DNA from: a virus
Lineage: Duplodnaviria; Caudoviricetes
Strand: one strand, 5' to 3'
DNA: 31,943 nt
Virus record (IMG/VR): IMGVR_UViG_3300020220_000207
Location: 1-31,943 of that record
Part shown: one piece after another, positions 11,965-25,700 of the stretch
How positions within the stretch are numbered: the first letter of the stretch is position 1
Layout: every line of letters starts with the position of its first letter
The notes under the pieces: model-generated
What the model was told of the DNA's origin: nothing
The model's input: only the letters and a program-made list of their open reading frames with translations
Database searches by the model: none
Program-made: the position numbers and the translations under genes

Positions 11965-13421
11965 TTGCGCCCCCTCAAATACAACATGAGCCGATGCCTG
12001 ATAAATTTCTCGACCTCTGCCGTTGGAGGCTTTGATACGTTTCTCAAATTCCTAGGCCATACTCCAAACTTTTCTTTGAATGTATGCGCCGCACGACCCT
12101 CCCTCCATCCCGCAAATTCCACCTTATACCAAAGCTGAGACCACCAGTCTTGCTTGTTTGCCGTGTTCGATGCACCAATCTCTACAAGCCTCCCAGGCTC
12201 AGCTTCAACCTTGTTCTTGCGCTCCCGAACATGCCCACAATGTGAACATACGTCCGAATTCGGAGGCCACAATGCATTGCATTTCGGGCACTTTGACTTC
12301 TCCTTGGCAACCTTGTCAATCTCTTTTCTGGGCTTTTCTTTCTCATCCGAAAGCGCCAATACCCCGTCATTAAATACCTCGTCCCATTGATCCCGGAATC
12401 TAAGATAGTTTCCTGAATGATCCAGCCATAATGCGTCACCTTTCCCATCACAACCCCTCATCACCCTCCCCATTTGCTGAATGTGGGATGATAATGATTT
12501 GGCAAACGGCCTTGCAGATACGCCGATACGAACATCCGGCACATCAAAACCTTTTGTCAGAATATCCGTTGCAATTAATCCGTGAATCGTTGTGTCCGGC
12601 CTGCTAAAATCCTTGATAATGTCTCTCTTGAATTGATCATCATCAAGATAGGATATGGACACAAAGTTATAACCGTGCTCTGCAAACTTTCTGGAGATGT
12701 CTGTGCCGTGAGCTACGCCAGCACAAAACACAATGGTCTTTTCCGGCTTGTTATAAATCTCATGCGTCTTGGCAATCCACTCCTGAACAATGTCTCCCGT
12801 AATTTTCATTCCGCGCTTTTCAATCTCGTCTGTAGACCACTCTCCGGCGACCTTCTTTGCGCCCTCCATATCAATCTCGGTGGATACAAACACCCTGAGC
12901 GGCACCAGTATGCTCTGATTCACCAGTTCTTTTGTCGTTGTTATTGAGACAACATTCTGATAAATGTCAGACAGCCCCTTTGTGAATGGGGTGGCGGTAA
13001 GACCCACTACCTTGATATTTTGGTTGTTTTTGATAAAGTCCTTGGTTTGTTTACGAGCGACATGACACTCGTCTACAATCAAAAGATTCAATCCCGGGAA
13101 CGATCCCCGGGCTTCCAAGGTCTGCGCAGAACAAACCTGGATGGGTTCGCTCGGCCTGTAGCGCCTATGCTTTGACTGTAAAACCCCGTGGTCGATGTTG
13201 TATCGATCCAACCGCTGACTGGTCTGATCGCATAAAATAATCCGATCCAAAACCATCGCAGCACGGCTTCCTTTGGTTTTGGCCGCATGGAGCAGAGCGA
13301 TTGCCATCTCGGTTTTGCCTGCCCCAGTGGGGGCGTAAAGGATCTGCGCTCTCTTGCCCTGCGCAAACCCCTTTCTCAGCGCGTCAAGAGTCTCCTCTTG
13401 ATACGGCCTTAAATGAAGCAT
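11961..13421 (-). CDS. SF2 DExH helicase with C-terminal Zn finger
   Basis: APTGAGKT, DECH, TAT, GFDVP, QQMGRVMR, CPKC...CSHC. Confidence 0.92.
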   Translation of the reverse strand: MLHLRPYQEETLDALRKGFAQGKRAQILYAPTGAGKTEMAIALLHAAKTKGSRAAMVLDRIILCDQTSQRLDRYNIDHGVLQSKHRRYRPSEPIQVCSAQTLEARGSFPGLNLLIVDECHVARKQTKDFIKNNQNIKVVGLTATPFTKGLSDIYQNVVSITTTKELVNQSILVPLRVFVSTEIDMEGAKKVAGEWSTDEIEKRGMKITGDIVQEWIAKTHEIYNKPEKTIVFCAGVAHGTDISRKFAEHGYNFVSISYLDDDQFKRDIIKDFSRPDTTIHGLIATDILTKGFDVPDVRIGVSARPFAKSLSSHIQQMGRVMRGCDGKGDALWLDHSGNYLRFRDQWDEVFNDGVLALSDEKEKPRKEIDKVAKEKSKCPKCNALWPPNSDVCSHCGHVRERKNKVEAEPGRLVEIGASNTANKQDWWSQLWYKVEFAGWREGRAAHTFKEKFGVWPRNLRNVSKPPTAEVEKFIRHRLMLYLRGRK

Positions 13422-14152
13422 TACTTCCTCCTAATCTGTCGTTTCAATTGAGCATTCTCATCCTGAAATTGATCGCGGCTCAGCCTCAGCGCTTCGTTCT
13501 CAATCTTCAACAAACGAATCTCCTCCCGAAGCTGACGAATTATCGTTTCTGCGTCTACACCCTCAGGAAACTCCAGCTTTGAAGTCGCCAACTGCGTCTT
13601 CAACTCTTCGTTCTCTTGGTGCAAAACATTGATTACATCGTGCTTGATGTCGTCTTCGACCTCCTCCTTGTTCACCTTCATTGTGGTAACTTTACCACTC
13701 TTGTGTTGGAATTTTTTCACAACCTTGGTCTGCTTTTGCTCTTTTCGCAATTTTGCAACAAAGGGGTGCGAGACATGGCACAGCCGTGCGATCTCCGCAT
13801 CCGACCAGTCACTCCACTCTACGTCCTCCAACATGATGAACACGCTGTTACGTTTGTCGTCGTTGGTTCGCCGCAGACCATGAAGTGCGTTGGCCCCAAG
13901 CGAGTGGAGCACCGCATCCCGAAGCGTCCCCGACACGACTTCCGCAACAATTTCCTTTCTTTTCGCACGCTTATGTGCAAAGTAACGGTGGAAACCATCT
14001 GCAAGATAGTTTTTTATGCCATCAAAGTATACAATGATCGGCGGGAAACATGCGCCCTGCAAAATCGCCTCCGCATAGTCCGCAACCGTCTCTTCGTTGA
14101 TCCTGGACCGACTTTGCGTTCCCCCATCAATGGTGATCTGATCAATGTTCAT
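13421..14152 (-). CDS. ParB/Srx N-terminal domain protein with HTH and coiled-coil
   Basis: TQSR..INEETVADYA, PPIIV, LADGFHR; WSDAEIARLCHVSHPFVAKLR HTH. Confidence 0.8.
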   Translation of the reverse strand: MNIDQITIDGGTQSRSRINEETVADYAEAILQGACFPPIIVYFDGIKNYLADGFHRYFAHKRAKRKEIVAEVVSGTLRDAVLHSLGANALHGLRRTNDDKRNSVFIMLEDVEWSDWSDAEIARLCHVSHPFVAKLRKEQKQTKVVKKFQHKSGKVTTMKVNKEEVEDDIKHDVINVLHQENEELKTQLATSKLEFPEGVDAETIIRQLREEIRLLKIENEALRLSRDQFQDENAQLKRQIRRK

Positions 14153-14739: not shown

Positions 14740-14757
14740 CCCTCGCTCCGGCGAGGG
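14740..14757 (+). other. GC-rich UNCG hairpin upstream of the Tas gene
   Basis: CCCTCGC-TCCG-GCGAGGG, 7-bp perfect stem, no U-tract. Confidence 0.55.
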
Positions 14758-14779: not shown

Positions 14780-15586
14780 ATGGAATCTAACATGGAATCG
14801 TTGCAAAAACTAACCAAAGACTTAAAGTTGGCGGCCAAAACACTCACCGCTCGCGAAGTCCGGTTTCTGGTTGACTACTACTATATCGCACAAGAGGATC
14901 GCAAACGTGGAGGCAATCAGGTTCGCGCTCTCACAAAAACCGGAGAGCCTAGCAGCGTCATCGGCTGGCTGACTCTCCAAACCTCTACGCTCGAAGAAGA
15001 AATACGGAAAGCGCTTAACGCATACACACAATCTCATATCATGGGAGGCTGGGCACGGGAGGTCTATGGGATCGGTCCTGTCATTTCTGCCGGATTGCTG
15101 GCACACATCAACATCGAAAAAGCCCCCACGGTTGGGCACATCTGGCGCTTTGCGGGTTTGGACCCTACGACCTCTTGGCGCAAAGGTGAGATACGCCCGT
15201 GGAATGCTCGCCTCAAGTCTTTATGCTGGAAAATTGGGCAGTCTTTCATGAAATTTTCCAACCGGGATGACTGTTTTTATGGACACGTTTACAAACAAAG
15301 AAAAGAATACGAGGTTTCACGAAATGAATCTGGTGCCAATCGCGAGCTTGCAATTTCTATTGCAGAATCCGGGAGGTTTGGAAAAACCACCGATGCATAC
15401 AAGTCTTACTCATCGGGATTGCTGCCTCCTGCACAACTTGATGCCCGTGCCCGACGTTACGCTGTAAAGCTTTTCCTCTCCCACCTGCATGGAGAGTGGT
15501 ATCAGCGGCATTTCAATACCCCGCCTCCGTTGCCTTACGCGATTGCGCATTTGAATCACGCCCACTTTATTCCTCCGCCTCATTAA
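14780..15586 (+). CDS. tasA: TIGR-associated Nop-domain (IS110 Transposase_20-like) protein, TasA type, no evident nuclease domain
   Basis: Helical N-terminus, VYGIGPVISAGLLAHI, IWRFAGLDP, WNARLK, ARRYAVKLFLSHL match the IS110/Nop RNA-binding fold; no DEDD RuvC, no HNH; array starts at its stop codon. Confidence 0.85.
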   Translation: MESNMESLQKLTKDLKLAAKTLTAREVRFLVDYYYIAQEDRKRGGNQVRALTKTGEPSSVIGWLTLQTSTLEEEIRKALNAYTQSHIMGGWAREVYGIGPVISAGLLAHINIEKAPTVGHIWRFAGLDPTTSWRKGEIRPWNARLKSLCWKIGQSFMKFSNRDDCFYGHVYKQRKEYEVSRNESGANRELAISIAESGRFGKTTDAYKSYSSGLLPPAQLDARARRYAVKLFLSHLHGEWYQRHFNTPPPLPYAIAHLNHAHFIPPPH

Positions 15587-16769
15587 AACATCAGATAGGA
15601 GAGCGCCATATCCCCAGATTGAAACAGTGCTATGGAGCGCACCACAAACAGAGATTGAAACACTGTTACCGAGAGCACCACAGAGCAGGATTGAGACAAC
15701 GACAACGAGAGCACCAATCGGCCAGATTGAAACAACGACCACGAGAGCACCAATGGTCGAGATTGAAACACTTAACGGGAGAGCACCAACGCATTAGATT
15801 GAAACAGTTATCGGGAGAGCACCACTCAAGCAGATTGAAACAAGTGCTGAGAGAGCACCACTTTGTTGGATTGAAACATCAGCCAAGAGAGTTCCAAAGC
15901 TTTAGATTGAAACAAGAGCACCATATATGGCGTTTGAAACAAAACGCCCGAGAGCACCAGATCGAAAGATCGAAACACCGTTAGGGAGAGCACCACTCCA
16001 GCAGATTGAAACACGATCCACGAGAGCACCACTCAAGCAGATTGAAACACGCTCCACGAGCGTACCATATAGACAGATTGAAACACAGCGCATGAGAGCA
16101 CCATTCGAAAAGATTGAAACAATAAAACCGAGAGCACCATTTGAGCGGATTGAAACAGCTCCGAAGAGAACACCACTTTTGAAGATTGAAACCTCCACGG
16201 CGAGAGTACCAAGTTCAACGATTGAAACACTCTCGGTGAGAGAACCAAGCTGATCGATTGAAACACTGAAACCGAGAGCACCATTGGCGATGATTGAAAC
16301 AATTGATCGGAGAGCACCACGTCTTGAGATTGAAACACCATAAAAGAGAGCACCAGAGCAAAAGATTGAAACACCATCTCCAAGAGTACCAGTGACCAAG
16401 ATTGAAACACACGCTCAGAGCGCCCCATACATGTAGATTGAAACGCCTGCCTTGAGAACACCAAGCTGAAGGATTGAAACACGCGAACTGAGAGCACCAA
16501 TCGTCCAGATTGAAACACCCGGCAAGAGAGCACCACTTGATGAGATTGAAACACTTGACGGTAGAGCACCACGCCCGCAGATTGAAACAGTTCCATGGAG
16601 AGCACCACGCCCTTAGATTGAAACATTGGCCGATAGAGCACCAGCCGGACAGATTGAAACCGGATATACGAGAAAACCATGCGCGATGATTGAAACGATG
16701 CCGTTGAGAGAACCATGATCCTAGATTGAAACAGCCCCAGAGAGAGAACCATCACCCTAGATTGAAACA
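15581..16769 (+). ncRNA. TIGR-like dual-repeat guide-RNA array: 33 units plus a terminal repeat, 36-nt period
   Basis: GATTGAAAC recurs every 36 nt (15617, 15653, 15689 ... 16760; 30 of 34 copies exact), alternating with GAGAGCACCA (17 of 33 exact, terminal CCA invariant) and two variable ~8-nt segments; one 27-nt unit at 15905. Confidence 0.9.
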
Positions 16770-16829
16770 ACCAGGCTATTAGGATCGCATTACCGTCCCT
16801 AAATCGATGTTTAATAATCCATTTAAGCT

Positions 16830-17111
16830 ATGAACCCCATGAAACTAAATGAAGCACAGGAAAGGACGATGCAACCTGTGCTCATACTTGAAGGCATCAT
16901 GTATCTACCACACTACGTACAAGTTAATCGGTGGTGTGGCCCCGGTACAAAAATTAGTCCGTGGGGTAGTCCCGAGGATACAATACCTTTCACTACAGAA
17001 AATCTTATTGGCCGAGGGGCTGTGTGGGGGTCTTACCCACTTTGGCCCCGCAGATGGACGGAACTGTTATTGAATGCGCCACCTTTTACGGAGAAAACTG
17101 GAGAGGAATAA
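16830..17111 (+). CDS. Hypothetical protein
   Basis: 93-aa ORF after the array; start uncertain (possibly MQPVL after AAAGGA). Confidence 0.55.
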   Translation: MNPMKLNEAQERTMQPVLILEGIMYLPHYVQVNRWCGPGTKISPWGSPEDTIPFTTENLIGRGAVWGSYPLWPRRWTELLLNAPPFTEKTGEE

Positions 17112-22798: not shown

Positions 22799-25700
22799 CT
22801 TGCGGACTTCTTCTGCCTGCTTTGCCAGTTCTCCGAGAATAATTTTCAACCTATCAATTTCTTCCCGCTTGTCAGCGCCTGACATTGTAGGGTCTGCAAC
22901 AACCACGCGAATGTACTTGCGAACATCGCTCATCTGCTCGGCAGTCTTTTGATAGAATTTAGCGAGCGCGATTTTGTCTCCCTTTTCCTCAATGATCTCT
23001 TCAACCTTTTGCGCATCCCCAATCGCGGCATAATGACGCATGTCTGCAAAAGCCTGGTTGATGGCTTTTCCATTTTCATAAAATGCCGTGACATATCTTG
23101 ACTGGGTAGAGGGAAGCTCTTTAATCATATTTAGCGAAGCCCGCTCCATCCACTTCGCATCCGGGAGTGTTGCTTCCTTGAATGGCATGACCGCATAATT
23201 GGAGATAACCCCTGCCGTGCCTCCCGCCCACCCAAGGAGAGCATTGATTAGATACTCTGCTTGTACGGGTGACAACTCGGTTTTTTCCCCGGGAAATAAA
23301 GATGTAATGCCTCCTATTGCTTTGGCAAGCTCACTAGTATTGTCGGCAATCCGTTCCTGTTTGGAGAGTCTTTCCAATCCAACTGATTCAATAGGAGCGC
23401 CGGTGAACGACGAGGTGTTGGCGTACAAATCGAAAAATGGTTTGATGACTTGTGGAAAGTTTATGGCAAAGGTTTGCGTAATCATCCGACCAAACATATC
23501 CGCGACTTCTTTTCCTTCTGCGCCTTCATCGTAGACTTGTCTCAAGACATGTTCGGTTACTGTCCCTAGCGCACCTAATTCAAACGGCTTGGGTATGCGG
23601 AACGCGGCCTCCATTCCCGGCAAACGAATCCACCAGAAGTTATCTCGATCCCACTCATCACGTTTCTTATATTCCTCATCGTCTTTGAAGGCATAAAACA
23701 ATGTAGCCGATGCAAGCATGACAGCCATTGCCACTTTGGCAAATCGCTCTCCCTGTTCGCGTTCGGTCCCTGTAGAGGGTTTGCCATCCTGATTATAAAA
23801 CAGCCTTGCGGTCGGGATAATCCCATCTCTTCCAAGTTTATAAAGCCCCTGCACCCGGGCATTTAAGAATGGTATGGTTTGTGTAAGGTAACGGAACGAC
23901 TCCCAGGAGCCGTGCATGGAGAAGTCCAACAGGTCTCTCGCCTGGTAACTTGCTTCTAAATGGCTCAAGCCTTTTTCCCGAAGTTGTTTGTACAAAGCAA
24001 GACGATTGGCATTTTCTGCCGCATTCCCAGCCTCCTGATATTTGTCCCAGATCTTACGCAGGCCTTTGGTAATTTTATCTTTGGTGTCAAGAATGTTGTC
24101 GGGATTAATGCCGTTGTCAATTAACCGTTTTATGAGTGGCGCGGTTTCGCCCTCATAATAGGTGCCAAAATTGAAAATCGCGCCACCAGCCATTGCCGAT
24201 ATATAATTATCCGCCTTCTTGTTGTATATGGAAATCCCTTCGATAGCGTTTGAGACGGGGTCTGCTTTTAATCCTGACAATGCTATAGATTGAATGCTGT
24301 CTCGCCAAAGATTATAAACTCTAAACTGCGGGCTGATGGTTACGCCCCACTGGAGTATGTTTTTCATTGTTTTGGCGATGCGCAGGAATGTGCTTTGTTT
24401 TCCCATATAGTCAAGCGCAACCATCGAATCAAACAGCAGCGGGTCATTTATTTTGAAGTATTGTTTTTGCCCGTCGATCATAGCTTTGATTGAGCCTGTA
24501 GGTTCTTTAGTAAGCTCAACAACCGGAACACCACCAATAGAAGCTTTGGATGCATCTTGAAGCGTGGTTACAAGCGCCTGGTTTTTCATCGAAGCCGACA
24601 GTATATGGCTCCAGTTTCTAAGCGTGTTTTCTACCAGATCTCCAAATTGCTTCTCCCCGCCCTTTAGCTTCTTGGAGAAATATTGATTTGATAAGCCTGA
24701 TGCTGTGGACGGGCCTTCTACGTCCTTACCTTCCATTTCCTTATAAAAAGGAACATAATAATTATCTTTGGAAAACTTTTCAAATGCTTCGTCATTAATT
24801 AAACCTGTATCCTTGGCTACAGTTAGCACCGACTTGTTCAGCGCATTCATATCTTTAAGAACGGCGTTATACACCTCTATTCTTGGCTTGCCATTCAATT
24901 CTCCAGCGCTAAGCATGGGGGCGTTTTGCATGATTGAACTTGGGATGGAGGCGTCCTTTCCTTGTTTAAGCAGTTCAAGTTCGCGATTGACGGCCACCCA
25001 TATCATGAAATTATCGACCTCGGTTCCAACCGGCTTTAGGGTCTCAATAAGTCCTTTGCCTTTTCTGATATTGAGCGCCCCTCCATCATTAAAGACCTCT
25101 CCATAAAACAACAAGCCTTCAAGACCTCCGTCGATGGCTGGTGACAGTCGCGCCTGCTTGTATCCACTTTCACTATATTCTTTTACTGTACGGAATTGAT
25201 CTGCAATGTTTTGTGCCAGTCTCTGCCAAAAATTATCTTTCAGTGCTTCGATCTTATCAATAATCGTTACATTTCCCGGTGCGAAATTATTTTTCAAATC
25301 TTTTTTGAATTCTTCCGATGTTTCCGGCGAAAGTTTTAATGGCTCTCGTTTCTGTAATGCTTGCTGCGCAGTGCCAATTATTTTGTCTTTCAATGATTCT
25401 TTTTGTTTTTCCTCGGCGCTTAATACAATATCTTTTGAGAAAATGGATGATGGTCTTGGTAGTTTCCCAAGAGATTCTGTAAGACTTAATACTTGGGTAA
25501 GAACGGTTTTATTTTGAATACCAAGCAGATTGGCCACAAGTTCTACAAATTGCGACCACACACTCTTGTTTCTTGCATATGGAATATTGGCTATAAGAAG
25601 CTGGAATTCCGGGTTTGATAAAGCTTCCGTGACAAACTCAAACCCTTTTTCAAACGGATCTGTTGCGGTATCAAACGCATACCATTTTCTACCCGACTGA

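Follow-up and report, generated by a model that had tools for sequence, protein, structure and literature searches.

Does the alternating repeat that directly follows the tasA gene of this phage encode guide RNAs, and if so, which spacers are joined in one guide and what DNA would such guides address? The window (the whole 31,943-nt stretch of DNA that was analysed) is a tailed-phage fragment with terminase, portal, helicase, primase, ERF and SSB genes. The array's carrier is a lake podovirus-like phage whose closest cultured relatives, by terminase and portal, are 53–65-kb phages (33–57% identity) of Pelagibacter, Roseobacter, Caulobacter, a gammaproteobacterium and cyanobacteria. The stretch is present in 21 of the 22 runs listed, all labelled lake water metagenome and none recorded as RNA. 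The phage encodes a 2OG-Fe(II) oxygenase, and a search for its host found none.

The neighbourhood of the locus has several features of its own. A ParB-like gene (window 13421–14152, minus strand) heads the helicase-primase operon and is divergent from tasA; links between tasA and ParB were remarked on in the founding TIGR paper (PMC12045711). A strong hairpin (window 14740–14757), terminator-like on the minus strand, lies between a 116-aa orphan ORF and tasA. The small gene behind the array (window 16785–16951) also occurs, without the array, in contigs of far higher depth, which are possibly related phages that lack TIGR.

Table 1. Features of the tasA-array locus (positions in the window)
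Feature	Position	Strand	Description
tasA	14780..15586	+	268-aa Nop-domain protein, no nuclease domain; array directly behind
Dual-repeat TIGR array	15581..16769	+	Edge GATTG/AAACA, spacer A 8 nt, loop GAGAGCACCA, spacer B 8 nt; 32 complete units
First predicted 36-nt guide	15586..15621	+	Starts at half edge AAACA; putative cut site modelled on SpTasH guide ends
Unit 15761	15761..15806	+	Predicted 16-bp target exact at L500:3313-3328 (-), conserved L-N-G-N-A motif, 739-aa methylase-like gene
Defective 27-nt unit	15905..15931	+	Spacer A removed by 9-nt deletion, as in related locus L002
Tandem duplication of similar spacers	15968..16075	+	Local; L002 has one extra 36-nt copy
Unit 16112	16112..16157	+	Predicted 16-bp target exact at L500:5842-5857 (+), within 84-aa ORF

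Repeats of the GATTGAAACA type recur with a 36-nt period from 15581 to 16760 and alternate with repeats of the GAGAGCACCA type, and each 36-nt unit is composed of two 10-nt repeats and two 8-nt spacers that lie in CA-N8-GA. An earlier note on this DNA had identified a TIGR array, rightly, and the repeat alignment bears out its division of each unit into CACCA-N8-GATTG and AAACA-N8-GAGAG halves; of its 33 units, 32 are complete and one (15905–15931) is 27 nt long and lacks one spacer. Across 35 aligned repeat matches, 1 of them spurious, the repeat columns hold 0.9–2.0 bits of information and the spacer columns 0.01–0.26 bits, the exception being the last base of the post-CCA spacer with 0.69 bits. 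The first element of the array is the half edge AAACA, whose bases overlap the stop codon of tasA, and the last is a full edge; a terminator was looked for behind it and none was found. A box C/D base pair is present in both repeats and an additional covarying pair in the edge, the edge pairs here being T-A and T-A (box C = ACA) and the loop pair G-C only. A CRISPR array, with one repeat of ~25–36 nt and spacers of similar size, was rejected in view of the two 10-nt repeats and 8-nt spacers.

When the TasA sequence was searched against the PDB the matches were TasH and TasR only, and the best structural matches of its model (pLDDT 87.6) were 9MTY and 9W04, which are TasR and TasH structures. 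No N-terminal HNH or RuvC nuclease was found in TasA; its N-terminus is short and helical, and the HNH segment of SpTasH is a gap in the alignment. Y253 and H260 of TasA align, as judged from sequence, with Y289 and H296 of SpTasH, which are reported to process precursor RNA (PMC13421893), and both are invariant in 6 of 6 aligned proteins. An identical 268-aa protein is present in the published Tas catalogue (Table S1 of PMC12045711), 13 rows of which contain the TasA stretch that was searched for. TasA also has a weak match to Pfam PF02371 and a fold match to IS621, and it has the Nop fold in common with IS110 transposases and the Nop proteins of box C/D snoRNPs; unlike these it lacks a DEDD/RuvC domain and is accompanied by an array of 36-nt units in place of a bridge RNA, and an IS110 transposon was rejected for the absence of that catalytic domain. 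In TasA relatives L021, L024, L033, L037-L040 and L055 internal insertions split the alignment (matches of 840–960 nt vs. ~790).

The system, its geometry and its protein are known, and the 8+8 guide layout is already published. SpTIGR-TasH of Salicola phage CGphi29 (PMC12045711; PDB 9W03, 9W04; PMC13421893) has the same 36-nt unit, 10-nt edge and loop and 8+8 spacers, as well as a repeat start RAG/RAD, two edge base pairs, the Y/H pair and an array directly behind tas. The earlier note was right to read 8-nt spacers and wrong to see in them a departure from typical 9-nt spacers, since SpTIGR was published with 16 variable nt (Faure et al. 2025, PMC12045711). The synthetic SpTasH guide has the form AGCCA-N8-AAGACAACCA-N8-AAGCG, that is, 5-nt half edges, 8-nt spacers and a 10-nt loop (PMC12045711); a preprint describes DNA pairing of the 8-nt spacer A in the structure, and in another structure paper the DNA duplex starts again at position 17. 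The present system differs from SpTIGR-TasH in that its TasA has no HNH domain (23% identity over the alignment), its edge pairs are T-A/T-A rather than G-C/C-G, it has 32 units rather than about a dozen, and the last base of spacer B (B8) is biased to A. Dual-repeat TIGR-TasA systems such as FpTIGR (PMC12045711) likewise pair a solo Nop-domain Tas with a phage-borne dual-repeat array, but FpTIGR has 18 variable nt (9+9).

We consider it very probable that this locus is an SpTIGR-type 8+8 dual-repeat array behind a nuclease-free TasA, whose transcript is cut mid-edge into 36-nt guides that direct binding of 16 bp of DNA without cutting. The array would be co-transcribed with tasA, and TasA residues Y253 and H260, on the model of SpTasH, would cleave the transcript between GATTG and AAACA to give the 36-nt guides. 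Each guide should then address, again as in SpTasH, an abutting 16-bp site made up of spacer A and the reverse complement of spacer B, with no PAM; a TasA dimer would bind these 16 bp without cutting and, as other TasA proteins do, might repress transcription sterically. In bioRxiv 10.64898/2026.09.09.750476 such repression is shown solely for stem-loop TasA and dead TasR, which likewise are nuclease-free and bind DNA under RNA guidance, the tested ones being stem-loop systems. The most likely targets would be genes of the host or of co-infecting elements, and not the array phage or its TIGR-carrying relatives.

Which repeat is the edge decides which spacers share a guide. Arrays were parsed in 49 of 58 related sequences and then in 139 of 162 further loci, and 192 arrays form 113 groups with a modal period of 36 (105 groups) or 37 (8 groups). 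The parser presupposes 8-nt spacers and an edge that starts with RA, and because it does so the case for 8+8 in the relatives rests on near-uniform base use at the 8 positions and fixed bases next to them. Array ends are of mixed type, a point against the reading proposed above: 38 of the 113 groups end in a half edge and 45 in a full edge. Several side observations came from this set: a related TasA in a Woesearchaeota MAG contig is followed by 35-nt units with a 10-nt edge, 8-nt spacers and a shortened loop (L061:4868-5500); a further TIGR array, of 17 units and without an adjoining tas gene, lies in one phage record (L333, G046:C1:53937-73936, minus strand), ~40 kb from the tas gene of that record (23073–23936); and in a post hoc count over the 1353 guides of all parsed arrays the last bases of spacers A and B within a guide are complementary less often than by chance (286 vs. 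335, z −3.35).

Comparative evidence shows GATTGAAACA to be the edge. The earlier note had taken it as the loop; homology with SpTasH, covariation and co-inheritance all reverse this and make GAGAGCACCA the loop. GATTGAAACA falls in one class with the SpTasH edge AAGCG/AGCCA, and GAGAGCACCA equals the loops of relatives or differs little from them. In the edge-class repeat, pairs 3-8 and 4-7 form in 472 and 478 of 529 units (797 and 814 of 868 new units), while the loop's inner pair is present in 105 of 529 (120 of 868 new units). By the founding paper (PMC12045711) and by the TIGRFinder heuristic alike, the repeat with the extra pair is the edge. The edge pairs of relatives are A-T/C-G or G-C/C-G, and the outer T-A pair is common to six other groups. 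Length variation among the repeats lies in the loop. A spacer common to two arrays is accompanied solely by its partner on the far side of the loop in 132 cases and solely by its partner on the far side of the edge in 2; in 75 new groups the figures are 220 and 16 (these counts are of non-independent events). Within the array phage, five units are skipped (16219 to 16400) in two runs of one study, with the break at the edge, and one of these runs has unit 2 further down with A, a loop variant and B together. Three cases run counter: the duplication at 15968–16075 copied a B-edge-A block, unit 3 of L001 retains A with B altered, and in one run unit 16328 has a nearly unchanged A with a new B. 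We conclude that the gain, loss and movement of guides mostly involve complete A-loop-B units, on top of which there are point changes. In runs X19 and X20 unit 1 is retained, a new guide stands at position 2 (window 15617–15652) and the old unit 2 lies further down; new guides may enter behind unit 1, an observation from one study only. The target rule of the earlier note, A plus the reverse complement of B, was right, and its five listed 16-mers follow correctly from the pairing it used; since loop and edge were swapped, each of the five combines the B spacer of a guide with the A spacer of the guide that follows.

What do the correctly paired guides match? In the window and further parts of the same phage (G001, G002) neither register gives a match within 2 mismatches, which agrees with the earlier note's failure to see one; no self-target was found in this DNA at that stringency. 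The 548–553 guides of the clade have no exact match in relatives' DNA. Targeting of TIGR-carrying relatives was rejected: 18 guides matched with one mismatch vs. 10.8 expected (3 of 300 shuffles), and in a further 1.45 Mb of DNA the excess was absent (10 vs. 10.0 and 9 vs. 12.4 expected, 0 exact). Terminase and Mom-gene relatives gave chance levels, and 1100 new guides gave 5 exact matches vs. 2.5 expected (12 of 150 shuffles). Scans with the guide at 16004 and its variant hit 41 and 34 records, among which no second exact guide match was found; single 16-mers match 8 to 41 viral records, and therefore one match means nothing. No unit is common to this array and other arrays within 3 mismatches. 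A literature search found no reports of natural TIGR targets, and where such targets and the acquisition of spacers are discussed, in two TIGR papers, both are called open.

A Markov test of the A/rc(B) junction (z 1.6–3.2, K=5–6, 485 guides) was rejected as evidence after its pre-set replication failed on 868 new guides (z 1.1, p 0.13–0.15); a dinucleotide version (z 2.06 and 2.51, pooled 3.36) was devised post hoc and is a hint. In the corrected register 29 of 74 clusters of variant guides are silent in some frame, where 20.1 are expected (3 of 200 shuffles), and the register of the earlier note gives 13 of 56 vs. 14.5. The dinucleotide test and the silent clusters both point, as weaker hints, to contiguous coding targets in the corrected register; mod-3 spacing among guide variants was not significant. 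The dinucleotide signature of the spacers resembles that of natural DNA (TA 0.75, GC 1.16).

Could the array be processed and most of its guides nevertheless be stale, having drifted by duplication and mutation until they have no current target? Near-identical spacers within the array (≤1 mismatch) do exceed chance, with 3 for A vs. 0.27 and 4 for B vs. 0.35, and both the missing exact matches of the clade guides and the modest yield of the 1100 new ones fit such drift; but units turn over rapidly within the array phage, the natural-DNA signature and the silent variants speak against it, and the DNA searched for targets was that of relatives and of viral records. That most guides are stale is, in our judgement, unlikely.

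One record bears on whether guides of the 8+8 array have a living target. A scan with the predicted target of unit 15761 hit 8 records, and one of them, the Smithella prophage fragment L500 (14,397 nt), is also matched exactly by unit 16112, 2.5 kb away (Table 1). Its integrase is identical to a protein named for Smithella sp. SCADC, and it carries RuvC-like and YqaJ genes. In L500 none of 992 non-native pairs is exact, nor is any guide in gapped layouts or in the register of the earlier note, which gives no exact match in L507 either; the two exact 16-mer matches were found solely in the corrected register without a gap. Of 2944 non-native joins, 4 match exactly across the 83 scan loci (1.18 Mb), and the number of second matches expected by chance for 30 guides is 0.04 (0.017 under uniform composition), two registers having been tried. 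No third match was found in the whole L500 record, even at 1–2 mismatches, and no further exact match in 79 methylase-gene loci and the rest of 16 such phage records (0.39 Mb), or in the rest of the 6 other records matched by the unit 15761 guide; at two mismatches, with the scanned guide left out, the 79 methylase loci have 23 matches vs. 15.5 (3 of 60).

The 739-aa methylase-like gene is widespread and the first target site lies in its conserved motif. In two other runs unit 15761 has alleles with changes at target positions 3 and 15, and in one of these runs at position 1 as well; positions 3 and 15 are third codon positions of L-N-G-N-A, and the alleles could be assembly chimeras. Against a natural target here, the same frame fits other matches of this target as well, one of which reads like what we take to be a portal motif. 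L500 has its own Tas gene and 15 units of the 9+9 type (L500:11250-12663, minus strand); this Tas is 23% identical to the TasA studied here and has a Cys-rich insertion, and none of the 15 guides matches the array phage within 2 mismatches. Smithella derives from methanogenic cultures (PMC4208337), in contrast to the array phage with its 2OG-Fe(II) oxygenase and with cultured kin that infect aerobes, and the hosts of the two probably differ. That two guides exactly match two genes of L500 (G053) 2.5 kb apart could mean that this is a natural TIGR target, the phage silencing a competing prophage by RNA-guided binding; we put this forward tentatively, as a possible but doubtful reading, within which the guide alleles would track synonymous changes in the conserved motif of the methylase gene.

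The same matches bear on guide length. Ordinary 9+9 guides with the ninth base fixed as G, addressing 18-bp targets with a central GC, seem very unlikely to us: although box C (3) + 9 + box D (2) + a 4-nt gap also totals 18, in keeping with the 4-bp repeat gap of TIGRFinder, and TasR accepts gaps of 1–2 bp, SpTasH with the same spacing pairs 8 nt, the ninth base is G or A depending on the array and is not free (517 of 529 in loops), and both exact matches lack the central GC of the 18-bp form. The register of the earlier note, with GATTGAAACA as loop and guides made of a post-CCA spacer and the following post-ACA spacer, we find harder still to credit. The TasR loop is A-rich and GATTGAAACA contains GAAA, one local duplication is in that phase, and the failed junction replication gave z ~1.5–2.1 for it; these points are set against the orthology of GATTGAAACA to the SpTasH edge, the two covarying pairs, the 132:2 and 220:16 ratios of co-inheritance, the skips and moves of units in the array phage and the empty searches of L500 and L507. 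A protein-coding 12-residue repeat or an array of DNA binding sites can practically be dismissed, since, despite ORFs of 108–245 aa that overlap the array and a 9-nt deletion that preserves frame, no ORF spans it, the spacer columns have no codon pattern, the covariation is of the RNA type and includes G-U pairs, and TasA is adjacent.

The bias to A at the final base of spacer B, given by the earlier note as 24 of 33, is real (binomial p 5e-7 vs. 0.30; 16 of 23 and p 1e-4 with near-duplicates collapsed) and peculiar to this array: at 74% it is the highest among 65 groups with at least 12 units, the next being 7 of 12, and B8 is A in 33% and 27% of guides in two sets of relatives. The suggestion that information is lower on this account holds for the diversity of the array as a whole, which is down by ~0.7 bit; the readout of a single guide need not fall, and in both exact matches B8 agrees with the DNA, being A in one and G in the other. 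Our guess is that repeat homogenisation has spilled one base into the spacer; alternatively, T may be favoured at target position 9.

This analysis contributes three things to a known system: a corrected pairing of the spacers, evidence that units turn over as wholes, and one target that is uncertain. The new pairing yields 32 predictions of 16-bp sites, each from the two spacers of one guide, for a phage present in 21 public lake-water runs, and the turnover of whole units at the edge repeat, seen both among relatives and within the array phage, constrains the ways in which such arrays can grow. If the Smithella prophage match is true, it would provide direct evidence for a role of TasA in competition among mobile elements.
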